The notes under the pieces are model-generated. The model made no database searches. It worked only from the letters and a program-made list of their open reading frames with translations, and was not told where the DNA came from. A stretch of DNA of 20,000 nucleotides, taken from assembly GCA_049512315.1 (NCBI GenBank), contig JBEKXF010000017.1, forward strand, positions 49,018 through 69,017. The letters run 5' to 3'. The stretch comes from Candidatus Aminicenantales bacterium. GTDB lineage: Bacteria > Acidobacteriota > Aminicenantia > Aminicenantales > Saccharicenantaceae. Below are positions 1 through 12,400 of this stretch, piece by piece. The first letter of the stretch is position 1. The number at the start of each line of letters is the position of its first letter. The position numbers and the translations under genes were made by a program.

Positions 1-468
1 CTCGCGTGGTCGGAGATCGACTTCCGTAACCGCCTGGTGCATGTTATCAAGACCAAGCGGAACAAGAACCGACTGATTCCGATGAACAACATCCTGTACA
101 GAACGCTTCAGGAGCTAAGGTCTGAGGCCAATGGTTCCGAGAGGGTCTATCCGTTAAAGCATGTCCAAGGCGCCTTCGAGACGGCCCGGACGAAGGCAGG
201 CCTCAGCGGGCTACGGCTTCATGACCTCCGCCACACCTTCGCTACGCGTCTCATCCAATCGGGTGTCGATGTCTTCACGGTGCAGAAGCTTCTCGGCCAC
301 AGCACGATCACGATGACCATGCGGTACGTGCACTCGTTTGAGGCCCAAATGCGTGATGCGGTGGCCCAACTCGACAAAAAGTTTGCTCAATCTCTGCTCA
401 ATTCTCAACCTGGCCTCTCCCCCACTTCGGGGGAGAGGCAGGTATCTCAAGCAGGATCAGTGAATTAA
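1..468 (+). CDS. Tyrosine recombinase/phage integrase, C-terminal catalytic part (5' end outside the window)
   Basis: The frame is open from base 1 (LAWSEIDFRNRLVHVIKTKRNKNRLIPM...). It contains the catalytic motifs TK, HDLRH (HxxR), LLGH and MTMRY (nucleophilic Tyr). Stop TAA at 466-468. Confidence 0.95.
   Translation, partial: LAWSEIDFRNRLVHVIKTKRNKNRLIPMNNILYRTLQELRSEANGSERVYPLKHVQGAFETARTKAGLSGLRLHDLRHTFATRLIQSGVDVFTVQKLLGHSTITMTMRYVHSFEAQMRDAVAQLDKKFAQSLLNSQPGLSPTSGERQVSQAGSVN
384..402 (+). repeat. Direct repeat TGCTCAAT x2 (11-bp period), candidate integrase arm-type sites
   Basis: TGCTCAAT at 384-391 and 395-402, inside the C-terminal tail of the integrase and about 75 bp from the tRNA. 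Confidence 0.5.
413..439. repeat. Perfect 11-bp inverted repeat (hairpin) in the integrase 3' end
   Basis: GCCTCTCCCCC-ACTTC-GGGGGAGAGGC, with no U-tract on either side. Confidence 0.7.
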
Positions 469-476
469 CCATGAAC

Positions 477-571
477 GGGAGGGTCAAGGTCCCGGTGGGC
501 CTTCCGGACTTCAAATCCGGTATGGGGCTATCAACGTCCCGGGTGGGTTCGACTCCCACACCTTCCCGCCA
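477..571 (+). tRNA. selC: tRNA-Sec (selenocysteine, anticodon TCA), 95 nt
   Basis: 8-bp acceptor stem GGGAGGGT/ACCTTCCC followed by GCCA. Long D stem AAGGTCC/GGGCCTT with a 4-nt loop. Anticodon arm CCGGA-CT-TCA-AA-TCCGG (TCA at 511-513). Long variable arm TGGGGC/GTCCCG. T arm GTGGG-TTCGACT-CCCAC. This is the bacterial 8/5 tRNA-Sec fold. Confidence 0.97.
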
Positions 572-591
572 CTCCCTCTGATAAAGCGCAA

Positions 592-604
592 TATCAGCGA
601 CTTA
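592..604 (+). promoter_or_regulatory. IHF-binding-site consensus match just downstream of selC
   Basis: TATCAGCGACTTA matches WATCARNNNNTTR and lies 20 nt after the tRNA CCA end, a common position in att arms. Confidence 0.5.
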
Positions 605-642
605 ACAGATCTATCCGCGGTCCCGGCTGCTCGTTTCGGAGC

Positions 643-672
643 TTATGCGGTTTTATGCGATTTTAAGCCATT
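643..672 (+). repeat. Three imperfect 10-bp tandem direct repeats, candidate Xis/RDF sites
   Basis: TTATGCGGTT / TTATGCGATT / TTAAGCCATT in helical phase. Confidence 0.45.
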
Positions 673-745
673 TTCTGATGTGGGATGGGACGTCAAAAAC
701 ACGCCAGTTGGTTTCGACCAGGGAAGAGGCCGGGGAAGGCAGGGC

Positions 746-784
746 AAAAAAAGCCCCCTTCCCCCCGGTGGGGGGAGGGGCTTT
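746..784 (-). terminator. Rho-independent terminator of the TonB-dependent receptor gene
   Basis: The minus strand reads AAAGCCCCTCCCCCC-ACC-GGGGGGAAGGGGGC-TTTTTTT, about 27 nt after the stop codon. Confidence 0.85.
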
Positions 785-811
785 GAGCTTCTGCTTCTGC
801 GAGGGATCAGC

Positions 812-3800
812 TCAGAACTGGAACCGGACGCCTAACCGCATGACAAGGGGGTTCAGGATCTCGTAGGCCTGGTAGTTGTGGGCATAGGGCGAGAAGCTTG
901 TCGTCCCGTCCGTGTAGATGTAGTACGTGCCTTCCCTCATGTCGTACCGTCTGTTGATGGTGGCGGCGTTGGTCACGTTGAAGGCGTCGGCCATGAGGTA
1001 GATGCGGCCGGTATCGCCGAGCTTGATCATCTTCTCGAGGCGCAGGTTCAGCTGGTAGAAGGTGGGGAGCTTCGTCGTCCCGAAGATATCTAGATAGGCC
1101 TGGCGGTAAGGCTTGACTTGGGTCAGCGGGTTGGGCCACGTGTAGTCGACGATGTACATATAGTGAGGGATAGGATGGCCGGCGCGGGCGTTAAAGGTGA
1201 AGGAGATGTCGAAGCCCAGGGGCAGTTGGTAGAGGCCCTCGAGCTTGAGCAACCAGGGGGAGAAGATGTACGCGTCGACAATCTTCCCCGAGCTCAGCCC
1301 CATGGCCGGAGCAAAGAGTTGGTCCTGCAGAGCCCAGAGATTCGTCGCGTCTATATAGCCGTTGCCGTAATGATACTTCTGGCCCTGGTAGGACACGGAG
1401 CCGTCCAGCATCCACTTGTTGGACAGCCGCTTGTTGAAGCTGAGGTCAATGCCCCAGTATGTTTCGTAGTCGGTATTGAGCGTGTGGTAGGAGTACGGGG
1501 TGCCGGTATACGTGGGATCCAGCATGTAGACCGTGTGTCCGGGGCCGGCGCCCAGGCTGACGGTATGCGTACCACTATCATCCGTGTAAGTGATCGTCGA
1601 CGGGATCGTGGCGGCGGAGTCGGGAAGGCTAGCGTCCGGGCCCAGGATCACATTCTGGCCATCGATACTGTAGTTACCGTACGGGCCATCGGCGTAATAG
1701 GCGGGATCCCAGCTGAAGTGGTTGTACTTTCTATAGGTGGCGTTCAGGCTGACGCTGAAGTCGGGCAGGAGCTCGTGATCGATCGTGAACAGCAGCTCCC
1801 AAGTCCGGGAGGAACCGGCCTTCGGATCCACCGTATAAGCCGAAGGCCCGGCCGTCGAGGAATTGGGGGTAAAGCCCCACCATTGGTTGAACTGGGTGTT
1901 GTCACGGTAAACCGGATTCACCGCGCCGTCGACGATCAAGGGGATGGGGGCATAGGTCGTTGGGTCGTTGCCGTAGAGCTCGTTGGCTTGGGCCTTACCG
2001 TCGCCGTTAGCATCCCGCCACCAGAAGTACATCTGGGCGCCGCCTCCAAAGTATGGTGGGGCGCCATAGGGGTTGAAGAGGTAGTTCGAAGAACTCGTGC
2101 CCATGAAGTCGCCGTACATGGAAGCGCTCAGCTTGAGGATGGTCTTGCCGGTGCCGAAGAGATCATAGGTGATCCCGAGGCGGGGAGACAAGACATTCCA
2201 ACGGTAGTTGGGCTTGATGTTGGGGACTAGAGTGCCGGGAAAGAAGGCGGCGAGGGCCGACTTGACATCCGAGTCGAAATACTGCGCCCAGACCGGGTTG
2301 TTATCGACCGTCGTGTAATTGCTGGAGTTGATCGACGGCATCTGGCGGTCGTAGCGAATGCCCAGGAGGAAGTTGAACCGGCCGGTCGTGACGGTGTCCT
2401 GCAGGAAGGCCGACAGCTGCTTGACGCTAAAATCAAGGTTGGACGCGGCGGCGAGCATCCACTGTGTCATGCCGGGGGTGAAACCCGGATTGCCCGAGGA
2501 GGAGTCGGGGGCAAGGTCCCACCACATGTCGGGATAATTCAGATTATACATCTTCAGGAGCTGCCCGGGGGCCGTGGAGTCCGAGGTCACGCGGCGGGTC
2601 GAATACTCGACGCCCAGCTTGATTTCGTGGCTGACGCCGAACAGTTTGTCGTTGTAGTACTGGGTGTGAAAATCATAGTCATACATCGGCCGCGTGGTGA
2701 TATAGTACCCATACTCGTAGTTGACGTCATTGGTCACATCCCATTGCCACAGATTTTCCAGGTTAGGGTCATTGTGGGGGATCAGCTGGAACGAGGGGTT
2801 CGAGTAGGCGAATTTGGCGGACAGCAGGAGGTCGCTCCCGACCATCTGCTCGTCCTGCAACTTGACGATGGGCGAACCCCAGTGACCGGGCTGGCCCTGG
2901 TCGTACCCCTCCGGGTATGACGGGCCCGCGCTCCGCCCCATGAACGTCTTGCCGCCCGCAGTCCACAGGAACTCGAACCGGTTCGAGGAGATGAGCTGCA
3001 GGTTCACCTTAAAGTTATAGTTTGTGAGGAGCGGCTTCTGAAGGGTGCCAAAGGCATTGACCGCGTTGATATCCTGGACGCCGTAAGACCCCCACAGCCA
3101 GGCCCTGTCCTTGACCACCGGGCCGCCCAGGTTGAAGCCGTAGTCCTTGATCTGGTTGATCTTGTTGGTGCCCGTAAGGCCTAGAGCCCGCAGAGCAGGG
3201 GTCAGATTGCTCGCCTGGAAGGCGCTGTCGGTCAGGTAGAAACGGCCGCCGAAAGTGACCTTGTTGCCGCCGCGGCGGGTGACCATGTTCAAAGCGACGC
3301 CGCCCGTCTGGATGGTGACATCCGCGCCGCCGGTGACGATGTTCATTTCCTCGAACGCGTCGAAGTCCCAGTAACCCGGGGACGAGAGGCTGGCCGGGTC
3401 GGTGACGACGATGCCGTCAACCGCCCAGACATTGTTGTTGCCGCCGGTCGAATCGCCTTTGGCATAAAAGCCGGCCTGCTGGCCGGATTCGCTGCCGCCG
3501 ACGTTATCGCGGTCCATCTGGATCGAGGGCGCGAACATCATGACATTCCAGGGGTCTCTGGCCGTCGGCAGGGATTGCAAAGTCTCCTGGTTGACGTTCT
3601 TGCCGACCGAAGTCTTCCTGGCGTCGACCGTCGGTGTGACGGCGACGACCGTCACTTCCTCTTCCAGCTTGCCCTGCTCCAGTGTCATGTCGATCTTGGA
3701 TTGCGTTCCCAAGGTGACAATGATACCGGTCTTTTCCTGCTTCTTGAATCCCTGGAGCTCCGCCGTCAGGGCATATTTGTTGCTCGGCTCCAAAGAGATG

Positions 3801-3994
3801 AACCTGAAAATGCCCTGTTCGTCGGTGACGACGATGAAAGGGGCGCCAAACGGGGACCTCAGAGTCACGGAGACGCCCGGAAGAGGCGCGCCCTGCGTAT
3901 CGGTGATATGCCCCCAGATGGTGCCGGTCCTCACCTGAGCCGCAAGGGATGCGGAAAGAAGCAAGACAGGAAGTACGATAATGCTCTTTTTCAC
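812..3994 (-). CDS. TonB-dependent outer-membrane receptor (Oar-like) with an N-terminal carboxypeptidase-regulatory-like domain
   Basis: 1060 aa with a signal peptide. N-terminal motif GTIWGHITDTQGAPLPGVSVTL...YALTAELQGFK. Plug motifs LQSLPTARDPW and GGVALNMVTRRGGN. Barrel strands (SPRLGITYDLFGTGKTILK) and a C-terminal Phe (GVRFQF). GTG start preceded by GGAGG. Confidence 0.93.
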   Translation of the reverse strand: MKKSIIVLPVLLLSASLAAQVRTGTIWGHITDTQGAPLPGVSVTLRSPFGAPFIVVTDEQGIFRFISLEPSNKYALTAELQGFKKQEKTGIIVTLGTQSKIDMTLEQGKLEEEVTVVAVTPTVDARKTSVGKNVNQETLQSLPTARDPWNVMMFAPSIQMDRDNVGGSESGQQAGFYAKGDSTGGNNNVWAVDGIVVTDPASLSSPGYWDFDAFEEMNIVTGGADVTIQTGGVALNMVTRRGGNKVTFGGRFYLTDSAFQASNLTPALRALGLTGTNKINQIKDYGFNLGGPVVKDRAWLWGSYGVQDINAVNAFGTLQKPLLTNYNFKVNLQLISSNRFEFLWTAGGKTFMGRSAGPSYPEGYDQGQPGHWGSPIVKLQDEQMVGSDLLLSAKFAYSNPSFQLIPHNDPNLENLWQWDVTNDVNYEYGYYITTRPMYDYDFHTQYYNDKLFGVSHEIKLGVEYSTRRVTSDSTAPGQLLKMYNLNYPDMWWDLAPDSSSGNPGFTPGMTQWMLAAASNLDFSVKQLSAFLQDTVTTGRFNFLLGIRYDRQMPSINSSNYTTVDNNPVWAQYFDSDVKSALAAFFPGTLVPNIKPNYRWNVLSPRLGITYDLFGTGKTILKLSASMYGDFMGTSSSNYLFNPYGAPPYFGGGAQMYFWWRDANGDGKAQANELYGNDPTTYAPIPLIVDGAVNPVYRDNTQFNQWWGFTPNSSTAGPSAYTVDPKAGSSRTWELLFTIDHELLPDFSVSLNATYRKYNHFSWDPAYYADGPYGNYSIDGQNVILGPDASLPDSAATIPSTITYTDDSGTHTVSLGAGPGHTVYMLDPTYTGTPYSYHTLNTDYETYWGIDLSFNKRLSNKWMLDGSVSYQGQKYHYGNGYIDATNLWALQDQLFAPAMGLSSGKIVDAYIFSPWLLKLEGLYQLPLGFDISFTFNARAGHPIPHYMYIVDYTWPNPLTQVKPYRQAYLDIFGTTKLPTFYQLNLRLEKMIKLGDTGRIYLMADAFNVTNAATINRRYDMREGTYYIYTDGTTSFSPYAHNYQAYEILNPLVMRLGVRFQF

Positions 3995-4114
3995 ATTTCC
4001 TCCCTAGGCGAAGATTGCCCACTTGACCCTGGAGTGGCTGGCCACTCCTGCCATTCCCCTCCATGCGGGCCGGAAATAGAAATAATTCTCACCTCCCTTC
4101 ACGGCTTCAAATAG

Positions 4115-4130
4115 AGCAACATTCGTGCCA
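4115..4130 (-). promoter_or_regulatory. Sigma-54 (-24/-12) promoter for the TonB-dependent receptor
   Basis: Minus-strand TGGCACGAATGTTGCT matches TGGCAC-N5-TTGCW exactly, about 120 bp upstream of the start codon and correctly oriented. Confidence 0.85.
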
Positions 4131-4382
4131 TATAAACTGAGGCATGCCGATGAGTAGAACGTTGCTGAATATAAGTTGGGCCTTATCCAGTTTCTTGGCT
4201 TTTGCTCTTAGCCGGTCGGGGTCCGTGCCTTCATAAGTATCTGATGTTTCGTACGACCTTTCCTACGGATGGGCTATAGTCAGGTAGATGTGGACTTCCG
4301 CCGCAATGGAGGGAAATTCAATTAATCGGACTTATCCAAAATTCCGAAGGAAAACGGCCCATCTTTCCCGAACTGATGTTTG

Positions 4383-4477
4383 GGACCTCATCCCTAAAAA
4401 ATGGACCAAATCAGGGGGTAGGTTCAGAGATTTTCAAGCTCACATTATGTCTGGACCATTTTTAGGGGATGAGGTCC
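4383..4477. mobile_element. 95-bp miniature inverted-repeat element or internally deleted IS remnant
   Basis: GGACCTCATCCCTAAAAAATGGACCA (4383-4408) and TGGACCATTTTTAGGGGATGAGGTCC (4452-4477) are inverted repeats matching at 23/26, around a 43-bp core. The right end abuts a 5'-truncated gene. Confidence 0.6.
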
Positions 4478-4478
4478 G

Positions 4479-4715
4479 GTCCTCCTGGCCACTCCCCTCC
4501 TGGCCGCCGAAACCTACACCGGCAAGGGCATCGGCGTCACCGACGGCGACACGATCTCCGTGATGAAGTCCGACAGAGCAGTCAAGATCAGGTTGGAAGG
4601 TATAGATTGCCCGGAACTGGGTCAGGATTTTGGGACAAGGGCCAAGCAGTTCACATCTGGCATGGTGTTTGGGATGGAGGCTGCTCTCTCTACTTGGAAG
4701 CCGGCAAAATCGTAA
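4479..4715 (+). pseudogene. Thermonuclease (staphylococcal nuclease-like) gene fragment
   Basis: Not in the ORF track. The frame translates VLLATPLLAAETYTGKGIGVTDGDTISVMKSDRAVKIRLEGIDCPELGQDFGTRAKQFTSGMVFG..., with SNase motifs DGDT and RLxGIDxPE. There is no upstream start codon (in-frame TGA at 4470). Similarity is lost near 4676 and the stop is at 4713-4715, so the C-terminal half is missing. Confidence 0.88.
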
Positions 4716-4810
4716 AGGAAAGTACGGCGGGCAACGCAAACGGGCTACCAGACGTTATTGGAGGTTTAGGTCAAAAATACATTTCTAGAGGATGACCTAA
4801 CAGATGGAAC

Positions 4811-4838: not shown

Positions 4839-4874
4839 TGAGTGTCAGGAATCCATTTATTTAAAAGAGGTCGT

Positions 4875-6281
4875 ATGAAGAGCGCATTGAAGTTGCTGAT
4901 ATTAGTCTTTTCATTTTTGGCGCTGCTTTCAGCCTGCGGAGGCGGCACCGGAGCATCGCCGAATTCCTCACCGGTGCCAACCTGGATGTCCGGCAGTAAT
5001 ACCAAAAATCAGGCGGGTACCTACGGCACCCAAGGCACAGCCGCTTCGTCAAACGTCCCCGGGGCAAGGTCCGGGGCCGTGTCCTGGAGCGATTCCAGCG
5101 GCAACCTCTGGCTCTTCGGGGGATATGGCCGTGATTCGGCCGGCAATCTCGGCTATCTCAATGATCTATGGAAGTATGACCCGACAGCCCTTGAATGGAC
5201 CTGGGTATCAGGCAGTAATATAATGAATCAGATGGGCGTCTACGGTAACCAGGGCGCAGCCGCTCCGTCAAACGTCCCCGGGGCAAGACAGCATGCTGTA
5301 TCCTGGCTCGATTCCAGCGGCAGACTCTGGCTATTCGGAGGGACTGGTTTAGATTCGGCTGCCACGATTGGGCGTCTCAATGACCTGTGGAAGTATGACC
5401 CGACGACTCTTGAATGGACTTGGGTATCGGGCAGTGATAGCTTTGGTCAGAAGGGCACTTACGGCACCCAGGGCGTAGCCGCCCCGTCAAACGTCCCCGG
5501 GGCAAGGTCCGGGGCCGTATCCTGGCTCGATTCCAGCGGCAGACTCTGGCTATTCGGAGGATTGGGCTACGATTCTGCTGCCTATAATGGCGATCTCAAT
5601 GACCTGTGGGACTATGACCCCACAACCCTCGAATGGACCTGGGTATCAGGCAGTAGTGCCATAGATCAGTCCGGCACCTATGGAACAAAGGGCACAGCCG
5701 CTTCGTCAAACGTCCCCGGGGCAAGAGATGCGGCTATATCCTGGATCGATTCCAGCGGCAAACTCTGGCTCTTCGGAGGATCGGGAAATGACTCGGCTGG
5801 CACTGTCGGCCGTCTCAATGACCTGTGGAAGTATGACCCGACAGCCTTGGAATGGACCTGGGTATCAGGCAGCAATACGATCAATCAGGCGGGCACCTAC
5901 GGTACCCAGGGCACAGCCGCTTCGTCAAACGTCCCCGGGGCAAGAGATACGGCTGTATCCTGGATCGATTCCAGCGGAAAGCTCTGGCTCTTCGGGGGAT
6001 ATGGGAATGATTCGGCCGGCAGTATCGGCTATCTCAATGACCTGTGGAAGTATGACCCGGCAGCCCTTGAATGGACCTGGGTATCCGGCGGTGATACCGT
6101 AAATAAAACCGGCACCTACGGAACAAAGGGCGCGGCCGCTTCGTCGAACATCCCCGGGGCAAGAGCGAGTGCCATACCCTGGCTCGACTCCGGCGGCAAG
6201 CTCTGGCTCTTCGGGGGAGAGGGTATAGATTCGGCTGGCGCATACGGCTATCTCAACGACCTGTGGCAGTTCACCCGCTAA
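4875..6281 (+). CDS. Lipoprotein with six kelch-like repeats (beta-propeller)
   Basis: Preferred start is ATG 4875 (AAGAGG RBS). Signal peptide with lipobox LSA|C and a Gly/Ser/Pro linker. Six 73-aa repeats containing PGAR...LWLFGG...LNDLWKYDP...WTW, a kelch GG..Y..W pattern. Confidence 0.9.
   Translation: MKSALKLLILVFSFLALLSACGGGTGASPNSSPVPTWMSGSNTKNQAGTYGTQGTAASSNVPGARSGAVSWSDSSGNLWLFGGYGRDSAGNLGYLNDLWKYDPTALEWTWVSGSNIMNQMGVYGNQGAAAPSNVPGARQHAVSWLDSSGRLWLFGGTGLDSAATIGRLNDLWKYDPTTLEWTWVSGSDSFGQKGTYGTQGVAAPSNVPGARSGAVSWLDSSGRLWLFGGLGYDSAAYNGDLNDLWDYDPTTLEWTWVSGSSAIDQSGTYGTKGTAASSNVPGARDAAISWIDSSGKLWLFGGSGNDSAGTVGRLNDLWKYDPTALEWTWVSGSNTINQAGTYGTQGTAASSNVPGARDTAVSWIDSSGKLWLFGGYGNDSAGSIGYLNDLWKYDPAALEWTWVSGGDTVNKTGTYGTKGAAASSNIPGARASAIPWLDSGGKLWLFGGEGIDSAGAYGYLNDLWQFTR
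4980..6278 (+). repeat. Intragenic tandem repeat, 219-bp unit x6
   Basis: The anchor AAACGTCCCCGGGGCAAG recurs at 5051, 5270, 5489, 5708 and 5927, with a variant at 6146. Spacing is exactly 219 bp with no indels. Confidence 0.95.
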
Positions 6282-9423: not shown

Positions 9424-12400
9424 ATGAAAAAGCGCTTCCTCGTGACGTTCACCCTGACGTTTTGCGCTGCGGCGGCCGCTTGCGGCTCCCGCCCGTCCGA
9501 CCCGCTGGCCCGGGGATTCGCAGCCCCTCCTGGCGAAGCCCGGCCGTGGGTCTACTGGATGTGGATGGACGGCAACCTGAGCCGCGAGGGCATCACCGCG
9601 GACCTCGAAGCGATGAAAAGCGCCGGCATCGGGGGCGCCATCATCTGCGAGGTGAACGTCGGCGTTCCGCGGGGTTCGGTCGAGTTCATGAGCCCGGAGT
9701 GGCGGCGGTTCTTCAAGCATGTCGTCATCGAAGCGGAGCGGCTGGGCCTCGAGATCACGCTCAACGCCGGGGCCCGGCTGGACGGGAAGCGGCGGACCGT
9801 GGGTTAAGCCGGAGCAGTCGATGCAGCACATCGTCGCGAGCGCCACGGAGGTCAGGGGGCCGGGACGTTTCGACATCGTCCTGCCGCTCCCTAAGCGCCG
9901 GCCGACTTTTTTCGGAGACGGCGCCCTCCCGCCGGACCAGGAAAAGGCGAAAAACGATTTTTACCGTGATGTGGCCGTCCTGGCCTTCCCGACGCCTCGG
10001 GGCGGCGGCACGATCACGGACATCGATGAGAAAGCCCTCTATGTCCGGGCGCCCTATTCGTCCCAGCGCGGCGTGAAACCGTTCCTGCCCTCCCCGGCGG
10101 ACTATCCTTCCGTGCCGCGGACCGCGGCCATCGATCCCTGGCGCATCGTCGACCTCTCCGCGCATCTCGGGACGGGCGGTCGCCTCGCGTGGGTCGTCCC
10201 GGAAGGACGCTGGACGATCCTCCGCTTCGGCCGGACCAGCACGGGCGCGAACACCCGGCCCGCGCCTGTCCCGGGGCTCGGCCTCGAGTGCGACAAGCTC
10301 GATCGGGCGGCGCTCGACGCGCATTACGACGCTTTCGTCGGGACTCTTCTGCGGGAGATCGGACAGCACAAAACGGCTGGCGGCGCCGGTTGGACCTTCC
10401 TCCACATCGACAGCTGGGAAATGAGCTCCCAAAACTGGACCGGAGCTTTTCGCGAGGAGTTCCGACGCCGCCGCGGCTATGACCCGCTCCCCTATCTCCC
10501 CGCATTGACGGGCCGGGTCGTCGATAGCCTCGAGATCTCGGAGCGCTTCCTCTGGGACCTTCGCTTCACGGCCCAGGAGCTCGTCGTCGAGAATCACGCC
10601 GCCCATCTCAAGGAGCTCGGGCGGCGCGACGGCTTCGGGCTGTCCATGGAGCCCTACGACATGACCCCGTGCGCGGATATGACCCTCGGCGCCGTCGCCG
10701 ACGTGCCGCAGGGCGAGTTCTGGCTCTACGGGTTCAACACGGCCCACAGCGTCGTCGAAGCCGCAAGCATCGCGCACACCTGCGGCCGGCGGGTCGTGGG
10801 TGCCGAGGCCTTCACGTCGAGCGACGCCGAGCGCTGGCAGGCCCACCCGGCCTCGATGAAGGCGCTCGGCGACTGGGCCTTCGCGGCCGGCGTCAACCGC
10901 ATCGTCTTCCATCGCTTTCAGCACCAGGCCGGGCTCGACCTCCGGCCGGGTATGACCATGGGTCCGTACGGCGTGCATTGGGAACGGACCCAGACATGGT
11001 GGGACATGGCCCCCGCTTACCATACCTACCTGGCCCGCTGTCAATACATGCTGCGGCAGGGGCTGCCCGTGGCGGATGTCTGCTATCTCGGCGCCGAGGG
11101 CGCCCCGCAGGTCTTCCGGGCACCGGCTTCGGCGCTCCGCGGCAGCCCGCCGGACCGGCCCGGTTGGAACTTCGACGCCTGCGCCCCAGAGACGCTCGTC
11201 GCGGCCATGTCCGTCCGGGACGGCCACCTCGTCCTTCCGGACGGCATGAGCTATCGCCTGCTCGTCCTTCCGGAACGCGAGACGATGACCCCGGGCCTCC
11301 TCCGGAAGGTCAGGGACTTGGCCGCGGCCGGGGCCACGATCGTCGGGCCGCCGCCGCGGAAATCGCCCGGTCTCGTTGGGTTTCCCGTCTGCGACGCCGA
11401 GGTGAAGGCGCTGGCCGGCGAGCTCTGGGGGAATTGTGATGGTGTTCGCATGACCGAACATGTCATAGGCAAAGGCCGGGTCATCTGGGACCGCCGATCT
11501 CCGGCAGGGGCGAAAAACGGCTCCGAGCCGGATCCGGGCACGGGGCGGGCCGGCATCTGGAATGTCGGCGCCCCGCCGCTTTCGGAACCCGAACAGTACG
11601 GCGACTACGCCATCGTCGCCCGCATCCTCTCCGAGGCAAATGTGCCGCGGGATTTCGAGTCGGACGCGGCCCTGCGCTACACCCATCGGCGGGACGGCGA
11701 CGAGGACATCTACTTCGTCGCGAACGCCGAGGACCGAGCCCTGGCCGCGGAATGCATCTTCCGCGTGGACGGCAAGCGGCCCGAGCTCTGGGACGCGGTG
11801 ACCGGCGAGATCCGGGACCTCCCGGAGTTCACGGAATCGGGTGGCCGGACCGTCTTGCCGGTAAGTTTCGAGCCGCATCAATCCTTTTTCATCGTCTTCC
11901 GGAAGCCTGCGGGCGGAGCGAAGCCCTCGGGAGGGGCGAAGGCCTTGGCGCTGGCGGGGCGGCCGGTCAGGAATTTCGGCCGCGTCGAGGAAACCGGGAA
12001 GCTCGAGGGACCGTGGGAAGTCACGTTCGACCCGAAATGGGGCGGGCCGGAAAGGATCACGTTCGAGGGTCTCGAGGACTGGAGCCTCCGCCCCGAAGAG
12101 GGGATCAAGTACTACTCTGGCCTGGCGACCTATCGGAAGGCCTTCGACCTGCCCGGGGCGCCGGGCCGGGGCGCCTCCCCGCGCCTCTGGCTCGACCTCG
12201 GCACCGTGAAAAATATCGCCCGGGTGCGGCTCAACGGCAAGGAGCTCGGGGTCGTCTGGTGCGCTCCTTGGCGCGTGGAAATCACCGGGACGGTGAAGCA
12301 AAAGGGAAACCGGCTGGAGATCACCGTCGCCAACCTCTGGCCCAACCGCCTTATCGGGGACGAAAAGCTCCCGCCCGACTGCGACTACGGGCCGGGCGGG

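Follow-up and report, generated by a model that had tools for sequence, protein, structure and literature searches.

A putative integrative island on the 5' side of selC in an Aminicenantes genome

In Enterobacteria, selC is an integration hot spot of islands and phages; these elements duplicate the 3' part of the tRNA gene and lie downstream of it. In the 20,000 nt stretch of DNA analysed here (the window), by contrast, a tyrosine integrase gene lies upstream of selC, on the same strand, and ends just before the 5' end of the complete tRNA gene. How did the integrase come to be on this side? The first-pass annotation offered two answers: either the element uses the 5' portion of the tRNA gene for recombination and lies upstream, leaving selC behind element sequence, or its attP carries a whole tRNA-Sec, so that integration yields two full copies. 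Conserved linkage of the integrase with selC among relatives would instead point to a resident gene.

The integrase gene and its junction with selC

The features of the locus are collected in Table 1. Positions without a prefix are those of the window, which starts at position 49,018 of contig C17; C1 and C26 are other contigs of the same genome, G000.

Table 1. Features of the integrase-selC junction and of the putative island
Feature	Position	Strand	Basis or remark
Tyrosine integrase, 3' part (155 codons)	1-468	+	Open at the 5' end of the window; Pfam Phage_integrase PF00589, E 3e-26
Whole integrase gene	C17:48103-49485	+	460 aa counted from the first ATG
Paired TGCTCAAT repeats (TGCTCAATCTCTGCTCAAT)	384-402 (384-391 and 395-402)	+	Predicted arm-type integrase-binding sites, right (P) arm
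Conserved hairpin in the tail of the integrase ORF	408-443	+	Fold energy and covariation
Conserved box ATCAGTGAATTAACCATGAAC, with the integrase stop (466-468) and the 8 nt gap	456-476	+	Alignments of right arms
Intact tRNA-Sec gene (selC), putative attR of the island	477-571 (C17:49494-49588)	+	ARAGORN, anticodon TCA; Rfam RF01852
Putative island-borne 5' half of selC, direct repeat of the island	477-515	+	Repeat copies elsewhere in the genome
Anticodon loop CTTCAAA, putative 7 bp crossover (overlap) region	509-515	+	Repeat ends and symmetry of the flanking stem
Putative resident (chromosomal) 3' half of selC	516-571	+	Bases 40-95 single-copy; downstream gene conserved
Putative island, 45,408 bp	C17:4125-49532		5' side of selC; window opens in its right end

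The ORF call, ARAGORN and Rfam place the integrase stop codon and the full tRNA-Sec gene where the first-pass annotation had put them. The integrase gene is whole. Its full ORF matches PF00589 with an E-value of 2.9e-34, joins an N-terminal HTH_17 domain to the integrase and also matches Int_N and Phage_int_SAM_3 in Pfam. It falls in PHROG phrog_1 'integrase' (1.4e-83) and its nearest solved relatives are 5c6k_A 'Integrase' and the HP1 integrase. In the alignment to 5c6k_A the RRGE, HxLRH, GH and Y motifs are kept (as GMRRGE, HDLRH, GHS and RY), and the catalytic Arg, His-x-x-Arg, His/Trp and Tyr of a tyrosine recombinase are all present. There is no close relative in viral contigs, where the top match is 29% over a part. 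selC scores 74 bits against RF01852 (cut-off 47) and is the only tRNA-Sec gene that ARAGORN calls in the genome, which has both selA and selB.

The paired repeats and the 11 bp hairpin reported earlier in the integrase tail are there, at 384-402 and 413-439. The 19 nt paired motif (TGYWCAATCTYTGCNCAAT) occurs six times in the 3.5 Mb genome; all six copies are in arms of this element family, and they are oriented alike with respect to the tRNA piece. Besides the right arm, it is found in the left arm of the island (C17:4257-4275) and in four other left arms. The TGCTCAAT pair is nearly invariant across 10 orthologous right arms while the proteins drop to 68% identity, and we predict that it represents arm-type binding sites for the integrase. 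In the hairpin, GCCTCTCCCCC (413-423) pairs with GGGGGAGAGGC (429-439) to form the inner stem. The segment from 372 to 476 folds at -42.5 kcal/mol (z -5.8), and none of 200 shuffled sequences folded as well. Among 10 integrase-linked copies, compensatory changes on both sides are seen at 10 of the 14 pairs and 87.9% of cells are paired, with G-U pairs being tolerated on the + strand; none of 500 shuffles reached this value and every slid control was lower. In a mixed set of eight right arms, which included integrase-less ones, covariation was not supported (62.8% paired against 64.3% in shuffles). The confinement of the motif to element arms, together with the covariation of the hairpin, shows that these features are not due to chance.

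The spacing at the junction is also conserved. At all nine loci with a tblastn match to the last integrase residue there is an immediate stop codon (TAA, TAG or TGA; TAA in the window) followed by 8 nt and GGGAGGG, and the same is true of G003, a genome of the same genus. In the last 30 integrase codons G000 and G003 differ by 0 synonymous and 9 non-synonymous codons, against 22 synonymous and 11 non-synonymous changed codons in the catalytic domain (Fisher p 0.0004). This indicates that the tail is constrained as DNA or RNA and not as protein.

The gap between the stop codon and selC (469-476, CCATGAAC) literally leaves no room for an intergenic promoter, as had been noted. There is no sigma-70-like site in positions 1-1000 of the window or in C17:47400-49600, covering 2.2 kb upstream of selC. 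Cassettes in relatives have TTGACA-N17-TACCAT at the element end, 12-13 nt before the tRNA; this is absent from the window copy, so an element-supplied promoter is seen, as a sequence motif, only for the other copies. We infer that in the window selC is co-transcribed with the integrase gene.

A direct repeat of the 5' half of selC

When the upstream contig was searched for a second copy of 477-571, a 5' partial copy (477-515, tRNA bases 1-39) was found on the same strand at C17:4086-4124, 45,408 bp upstream, with 38 of 39 bases identical. This supports the first proposal, of an upstream element that recombines within the 5' part of the tRNA gene and leaves selC behind its own sequence. Further copies of the 5' part are present at C26:27324-27285 (with one extra base), C26:23737-23699 (a diverged allele) and C1:281-257 (24/25). 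Past base 39 the copies run not into tRNA but directly into a left arm (AACGATCCC...), which is conserved in eight copies and has a terminator-like hairpin and T run 41-70 nt into it. BLAST found no second copy of bases 40-95 anywhere in the genome, so there is no 3' partial copy. Downstream of selC there is a repeat-protein gene (window 4842-6281), and such a gene likewise follows selC in G003, G006, G009 and G012.

The repeated block spans the 5' strand of the acceptor stem, the D arm, the 5' strand of the anticodon stem and the anticodon loop. All 5'-type repeats stop at base 39, the last base of the loop, and the 3'-type repeats found in relatives begin at base 27-37; the stretch common to both types is the 5' strand of the anticodon stem with the loop, which is flanked symmetrically by the stem strands CCGGA and TCCGG. 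Sublocation classes of tRNA-gene integration were reportedly set out by Williams in 2002, and an identity block that ends at the loop, within a symmetric stem, is what marks the anticodon-loop sublocation. These repeat ends point to a probable crossover in the loop CTTCAAA. The block is made up of bases 1-39 with the island upstream, and not of a stretch reaching the tRNA 3' end with the element downstream.

The signature used by Islander is an intact tDNA, a co-oriented displaced fragment and an integrase between them, and in the passages cited its configuration filter permits a 5' fragment upstream, so that such a layout was foreseen (PMC4383910). All three parts are present here, with the displaced 5' fragment upstream and the integrase in the interval. 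At the right end of the island a serine recombinase gene, an AAA_25 primase/helicase-like gene and the HTH_17-integrase gene are all on the + strand. The upstream scar is preceded by 95 nt that resemble the right arm (80% identical), with no integrase before them, suggesting that the site had been used earlier and that attL is not a virgin chromosomal flank. Taken together, the data suggest, with a probability of about 85%, that the window begins in the right end of a 45,408 bp integrative island 5' of selC, whose attP would carry tRNA bases 1-39 and whose integrase likely recombines in the anticodon loop.

Relatives of the element and alternative explanations

In G003 an integrase orthologue (85% identity) stops 8 nt before an intact selC on a 142 kb contig. 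Its island is 19.8 kb long, carries different cargo and has its own upstream 5' fragment; it has in common with the window island only the left arm, the segment C17:43260-43731, the recombinase region and the integrase gene. Ten selC loci of relatives were compared (nine with an intact selC and one with a 5' fragment), with no near-identical strain among them, and the orthologue is present in G003 alone, being missing at 8 of the 9 intact loci. In metagenomes there are 11 non-identical loci with orthologues of 63-89% identity, eight of which extend past the stop codon. Six of the eight (68-89%) have an intact, co-directional tRNA-Sec gene 8 nt past the stop, in one case on a contig of 2.27 Mb (L076). 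In another, L082, the right arm and tRNA 5' half are joined directly to the left arm, which is the joint predicted for attP or for a tandem array, and in L100 the contig stops inside the tRNA 5' half.

Sister homologues, with 41-50% identity, run into the 3' parts of genes for tRNA-Arg, His, Leu, Lys and Met at 13 of the 14 loci that have at least 77 nt past the match, and also at L037. The anticodon stem is where these 3' parts begin, except in Met, where they begin earlier.

Partial 5' copies of the tRNA-Sec gene (E<1e-5) are present in 9 of 121 genomes of the order, and where one shares a contig with the full gene (G000, G001, G009, G093 and G102) it is upstream on the same strand. A 3' partial copy lies beside the full gene in 6 of the 121. 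In G102 there are two integrase-less units of 1.8 kb and 2.5 kb, each ending in TTGACA-17-TACCAT, 12-13 nt and the tRNA 5' half, followed by the left arm; they encode a peptidase S41-TPR protein and hypothetical proteins and give no integrase match. The segment C26:27285-23739 of G000 holds only a Ser/Thr kinase-TPR gene, and the copy at C26:23737 shows the same layout of promoter-like site and 5' half. selA and selB directly precede the 5' fragment on C1 of G000 and a 5' fragment in G002; in G007 they are 8.4 kb upstream of selC. Neither gene was found within 8 kb of selC at the first 10 relatives' loci; they are found further upstream in the same genus.

The island may be composite. It is possible, though we hold it to be the less probable view, that it has been built from decayed elements, in which case the current mobile unit would be the last ~6-7 kb with the arms, or the whole would now be immobile. 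The GC content varies between 40 and 60%, IS fragments lie inside the island among ordinary-looking metabolic genes, G003 shares no more than the left arm and the right-end module, and integrase-less units and arrays are frequent in relatives. However, there is no internal selC fragment or left arm between C17:4286 and 49398, and attL and attR differ at just 1 of 39 bases.

The second proposal of the first-pass annotation, an attP with a complete tRNA-Sec, is improbable. It could take the form of a T-arm-less tRNA-like gene, with integration swapping halves between two tRNA-like genes. The scar and left arm do align end to end with the Rfam tRNA-Sec model (model 1-91) as a tRNA without a T arm, the four attL copies scoring 30.1, 25.4, 24.2 and 23.6 bits; the acceptor stem is closed by an invariant TTCTCCC of the left arm, and RNAalifold closes the same stem. 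All four scores, however, are below the cut-off of 47, ARAGORN calls none of the copies, and the closing pairs never vary and hence do not covary (the covariation term of +0.58 in the RNAalifold consensus lends no support). The left arm has no primary-sequence similarity to tRNA bases 40-95, and with one full tRNA-Sec gene in the genome and no copy of bases 40-95 the two full copies expected from this proposal are not there. The left arm was also considered as a decayed tRNA 3' half, and local alignment against shuffles gave no signal (the C17 arm was matched by 795 of 2000 shuffles).

Still less likely is a domesticated recombinase that resides beside selC in conserved synteny, the 39 nt copy upstream being an old scar unrelated to it. 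The scar flank resembles an older right arm, much of the 45 kb appears to hold ordinary metabolic genes, and the four sequencing runs that contain the stretch, none of them listed as RNA, do so as short contigs, with branch points at 474/475 and 515, at the repeat, so that flanks cannot be phased and no excised-circle or empty-site joint is readable. Against this, the gene is patchy: none of the other genomes in the 121-genome sample of the order has a homologue of more than 47% identity, and the island in G003, the only one of the 10 relatives' loci to have the integrase, differs in cargo and size. The att-like arms are moreover kept by orthologues from unrelated metagenomes, and the right arm is joined to the left arm in L082. 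The conserved linkage that would have spoken for a resident gene is thus not seen.

Finally, a mis-join at the 39 nt repeat, with the integrase truly preceding the scar and not the intact gene, is hardly credible: the repeat is present 3-4 times in this metagenome-derived assembly of 77 contigs and short public contigs break exactly at it, but the same joint of integrase and intact selC is found on the 142 kb contig of G003 and on six non-identical metagenome contigs, L076 included.

Proposed route of integration and its meaning

We propose that the attP of the free element would be ordered as integrase gene, right arm (paired TGCTCAAT sites, hairpin and conserved box), tRNA bases 1-39 and left arm. 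Strand exchange in the 7-base loop would join the 5' half of the element to the resident 3' half, giving an intact selC (attR), and the earlier 5' half, with any promoter that it had, would be joined to the left arm (attL) as the scar. selC would then probably be the tail of a co-directional transcript of mobility genes (C17:43625-49485), to be released by RNase P, and the terminator of the left arm would halt transcripts from the displaced half-gene. By repeated insertion, selA-selB would have become separated from selC by islands and integrase-less cassettes wedged between them. An identity block directed towards the 5' end places the island upstream, where it must replace the promoter of selC. 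With the resident promoter displaced, selC must depend on element DNA for its expression, and it is likely transcribed from island DNA.

To our knowledge, nearly every island described at a tRNA site restores the 3' end, so that the gene retains its own promoter. The integrase clade of the window does the opposite, at the only tRNA-Sec gene of the cell. The window island has the selC target in common with the enterobacterial elements, but it duplicates the 5' part and lies upstream. It resembles the anticodon-loop tRNA islands in its putative crossover at a symmetric anticodon stem-loop and in forming tandem arrays. It differs from them in the direction of its identity block, which reaches from the loop to the tRNA 5' end, where theirs reaches the 3' end.

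Upstream insertion at a tRNA gene is rare but has already been described. The passages cited on the arg2A-VII type islands of Klebsiella pneumoniae place them upstream of tRNA-Arg, in contrast with the other islands of those authors, and do not speak of promoter and terminator supply by the arms (bioRxiv 10.1101/2020.11.02.365908). Going by those passages, both these and the window island are tyrosine-integrase islands upstream of the target tRNA gene; the former use the D loop sublocation, and the latter the anticodon loop, selC and an Aminicenantes host. SXT at prfC is an island that enters the 5' end of a protein gene and rebuilds it. Islands with dusA-specific integrases also enter a protein gene at its 5' end and rebuild the target (PMC4482086, in the part cited). 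Like these, the window element lies upstream, restores the 5' end of its target and puts the gene behind element DNA; unlike them, on the same partial account, its target is a tRNA gene, in which RNA structure and a promoter, and not a reading frame, have to be restored.

The integrase-less units have a counterpart in CIMEs and site-specific tandem accretion, described in the passages cited as units that keep both att sites and are stacked by an integrase-bearing element (PMC5704250). The units of G102 and of C26 in G000 show this stacking, as att-flanked tandem units without integration genes. As far as that description goes, they differ from CIMEs in that accretion is on the 5' side, with each unit ending in a promoter-like site and a tRNA 5' half. 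In the tRNA-dependent lysogeny of mycobacteriophages, the excerpt cited reports that the tRNA is not rebuilt and that a separate phage tRNA gene complements it (PMC10865867). That system and ours both have a tyrosine integrase that departs, at a tRNA gene, from the rule that the 3' end is rebuilt; compared with what the excerpt gives, selC in the window differs in being rebuilt from an element-borne 5' half, to a gene of 74 bits, and there is no second tRNA-Sec. We found no paper describing 5'-half integration at selC in the open-access literature searched. The island is a mirror image of the usual insertion at a tRNA site, and a rare one.

With this layout, transcription of selC is likely under the control of a mobile element. 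The arms of such an element need signals that classic attP arms need not have: a promoter or processing leader on one side and, on the other, a terminator that blocks read-through out of the orphaned half-gene. Such islands, and with them the cassette stacks between selAB and selC, will escape island finders built to look for a 3' fragment downstream. The closest sister clades (41-50%) retain the common polarity, at seven other tRNA species belonging to five amino-acid types, and comparing them with the 5'-type clade is a natural way to ask what determines polarity when the core site is symmetric.

More tentatively, one clade of HP1/P2-like Aminicenantes integrases may have flipped the polarity of tRNA-site integration, its elements carrying a promoter or co-transcribed leader together with the 5' half of tRNA-Sec. 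If this speculative reading were true, the interval between selAB and selC would be an integron-like platform of stacked single-gene cassettes, each of which would bring its own promoter and half-tRNA at one end and a terminator at the opposite end. The scar and left arm would give rise to a tRNA-like RNA without a T arm, which would have its own function. The only selC of the cell, and hence all selenoprotein synthesis, would hang on the element that arrived last.

The joint between the integrase and selC

There is a single tRNA-Sec gene (selC) among the 49 tRNA genes found by ARAGORN in the source genome (3.55 Mb, 77 contigs), and it lies complete, 8 nt beyond the stop codon of a tyrosine integrase gene (int). 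Pfam, ARAGORN and Rfam confirm this joint, which the first-pass annotation had described, and the TGCTCAAT pair and 11-bp hairpin in the integrase tail are both where it had put them. That annotation allowed either for an element upstream of selC that recombines at the 5' part of the tRNA, or for an attP carrying a whole tRNA-Sec, so that integration gives two full copies. There are four further occurrences of tRNA bases 1-39 in the genome, one on C17 (the contig of the window, which spans C17:49018-69017), two on C26 and one on C1, and the C17 copy places the element on the upstream side. No second copy of bases 40-95 was found in the genome, and with only one tRNA-Sec present the second alternative is not supported.

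The final base of the anticodon loop, CTTCAAA, is base 39. Directly after this base, each copy has a conserved left arm of ~175 nt (AACGATCCCGG...), with five copies in this genome and others in the relatives G003, G006 and G007. Because the tRNA copies run into the left arm at this point, the island is C17:4125-49532, upstream of selC and carrying the 5' half of the gene.

Features of the integrase-selC joint and copies of the tRNA 5' half (window positions unless a contig is named)
Feature	Position	Remarks
Tyrosine integrase, 3' part (ORF)	1-468	Pfam PF00589
TGCTCAAT pair	384-391 and 395-402	
11-bp hairpin	413-423 with 429-439	
Integrase stop TAA	466-468	then 8 nt before the tRNA
tRNA-Sec, 95 nt	477-571	ARAGORN; Rfam 74 bits against a cut-off of 47
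tRNA 1-39 copy	C17:4086-4124	same strand, 45,408 bp upstream; 38/39
tRNA 1-39 copy	C26:27324-27285	one extra base
tRNA 1-39 copy	C26:23737-23699	diverged allele, compensating D-arm changes
tRNA 5' copy	C1:281-257	24/25

The layout is conserved across the family. In G003, a genome of the same genus, an 85% orthologue ends 8 nt ahead of an intact selC and there is a selC 5' fragment 19.8 kb upstream (locus L036, from a named assembly, is the same and was counted with G003 as one). What G003 shares with this island is limited to the left arm, C17:43260-43731, the recombinase region and int. A metagenome scan gave 11 non-identical loci (63-89% identity), eight of which extend beyond the stop. In six of these (L075, L076, L077, L079, L083 and L115) the stop is followed after 8 nt by an intact co-directional tRNA-Sec; L100 ends within the tRNA 5' half; and in L082 the 5' half is joined directly to a left arm, as it should be in the attP of a free element or in a tandem joint. 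The last integrase residue is followed immediately, in the same column, by TAA, TAG or TGA in all nine loci whose tblastn match includes that residue, and a stop follows directly in G003 also. The closest named relatives of the integrase are in Candidatus Aminicenantes assemblies; the public runs holding the sequence are labelled peat metagenomes, and their contigs are short and break at the repeat.

The scar (the displaced 5' half) and the ~40 nt of left arm that follow it can also be aligned to the Rfam tRNA-Sec model end to end, with the T arm missing and the acceptor stem closed by an invariant TTCTCCC (C17:4086-4190, C26:27324-27247, C26:23737-23661 and L065:5528-5450). These alignments score 23.6-30.1 bits, under the cut-off of 47, and the fold has neither covariation nor primary similarity to the true 3' half.

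Polarity of the family and partial copies of selC

Homologues at 41-50% identity have same-strand 3' parts of other tRNAs downstream in 13 of the 14 loci with at least 77 nt of downstream sequence: Arg-CCT and Lys (three loci each), His and Arg-CCG (two each), and Leu, Arg-ACG and Met (one each). These parts start at the anticodon stem (the Met part starts before it), and L037 is another such homologue reading into a tRNA 3' part. In G006 a 38% homologue runs into bases 30-95 of selC, a 3' fragment; 9 kb upstream is the complete gene. That the homologues read into 3' parts argues for the 5' type being a derived state in a family otherwise of the usual polarity, with the same sublocation. The putative crossover is placed in the anticodon loop because nothing beyond the loop and the 5' stem strand is common to the two polarities.

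On contig C36 a 40% integrase paralogue (C36:24152-25650) reads into a tRNA-His 3' fragment, and the same contig has a left arm of the selC type that no selC fragment accompanies (C36:6370-6526), from which it would seem that arms move between elements of different targets. Another tRNA may also be used on its 5' side: in an Acidobacteriota assembly (L049:3001-3338) the 3' end of an integrase is separated by 48 nt from an intact tRNA-Ser(TGA) that follows in the same direction.

The tRNA was matched in 53 of the 121 genomes in the order sample. Nine of the 121 have 5' partial copies at E<1e-5 (the source genome, G001, G002, G009, G012, G061, G093, G102 and G109). Those with the full gene on the same contig are upstream of it on the same strand, at 2.5 and 4.3 kb (G102), 4.5 kb (G009), 16 and 19 kb (G093) and 139.6 kb (G001). 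There are 3' partials beside the full gene in six (G006, G015, G025, G033, G114 and G117). No genome of the sample except the source has an integrase more than 47% identical to that of the island, which suggests that most 5' scars belong to integrase-less units. Such units have one or two genes each, encoding a Ser/Thr kinase-TPR protein on C26 and a peptidase S41-TPR protein and unknowns in G102, and fit the scheme of CIMEs and accretion as outlined in PMC5704250. The intact selC of G012 (L032) has a U-G pair in its anticodon stem (CTGGA, 5' strand; TCCGG, 3' strand) and looks as would a gene with halves from different alleles.

Arms and putative expression signals

Of six copies of the 19-nt TGCTCAAT pair in the genome, one is in this right arm (the integrase-tail end) and five are in left arms, all in the same orientation to the tRNA piece. 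In the island, one pair is 113-131 nt to the left of the crossover and the other 133-151 nt to its right; they match the layout of arm-type sites and are putative integrase-binding sites. In 10 integrase-linked right arms 87.9% of hairpin cells are paired, with compensatory changes in 10 of 14 pairs; this covariation was matched by 0/500 shuffles and every slid control was lower, but it was unsupported in a mixed set including integrase-less arms. That the hairpin admits G-U pairs on the + strand suggests a role at the RNA level. Between the source genome and G003 the final 30 integrase codons show nine non-synonymous and no synonymous differences, against 11 and 22 in the catalytic domain (P=0.0004), suggesting that the ORF tail is shaped by the arm rather than by the protein.

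Right arms are of two kinds, one with the hairpin and one with TTGACA-N17-TACCAT 12-13 nt ahead of tRNA base 1. The latter is at both element ends of the G102 array and at the C26:23737 copy, so other copies do have promoter-bearing ends. In the hairpin-kind right arm there is no sigma-70-like site in window 1-1000 or C17:47400-49600, and in this copy selC would be co-transcribed with the mobility genes. In the left arm a putative terminator, consisting of a hairpin and a T run, lies 41-70 nt past the crossover; beyond it is TTGACA-17-TATTAT, directed into the island.

Contents, flanks and known systems

Among the 54 ORFs scanned, a nuclease and small phage-like unknowns are at the left end of the island, and transporters, sugar-phosphate isomerase-like enzymes, a TonB-type outer-membrane protein, a sulfatase, regulators and IS fragments are in the middle. 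The genes at the right end all have + orientation and encode a serine recombinase, an AAA_25 primase/helicase-like protein and the integrase, whose fused N-terminal HTH_17 domain is kept in paralogues and relatives. GC ranges from 40 to 60%, and the 45-kb interval may therefore be composite. DNA identity to G003 is just 61% in the HTH_17 part (C17:48103-48280) and 93% in the catalytic part, which suggests that the N-terminal DNA-binding module has been swapped.

On C1, selA and selB are directly upstream of the scar on the same strand; the order in G002 is selA, selB, 1.9 kb, 5' scar, and in G007 the pair is 8.4 kb ahead of selC. A repeat-protein gene (window 4842-6281; a 479-aa ORF of ~219-nt tandem repeats) is downstream of selC here, and also follows it in G003, G006, G009 and G012. 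Taken together, these conserved neighbours suggest that both flanks are resident and that mobile DNA now separates selAB from selC.

A stretch of ~4.1 kb that separates selC from the promoter of its conserved downstream neighbour (window 572-4760) is specific to this genome and contains a 1060-aa outer-membrane beta-barrel gene (812-3994, minus strand); no selC 3' fragment marks this stretch. It also holds a nuclease fragment (4480-4657) with 80% identity to the SNase gene of the island (C17:7148-7325). A MITE-like inverted repeat (4382-4477; GGGACCTCATCCCTAAAAAATGG ... CCATTTTTAGGGGATGAGGTCC) has relatives by the C26:27324 scar, by the integrase on contig C24 and in the G003 attL flank. Other short C17 repeats (2356-2493, 2929-3073 and 9688-9735) are on at least 15 contigs.

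The 5' end of a gene is rebuilt by SXT at prfC. An element at dusA is described as rebuilding the 5' end of its target (PMC4482086), the Islander configuration filter, as presented, provides for upstream tRNA insertion (PMC4383910), and the account of Klebsiella arg2 islands calls their upstream insertion at the D loop unusual (10.1101/2020.11.02.365908). The tRNA-dependent lysogeny outlined in PMC10865867 is a different solution from that of this island. The structure is well supported, and the data describe a known kind of island in a new form.
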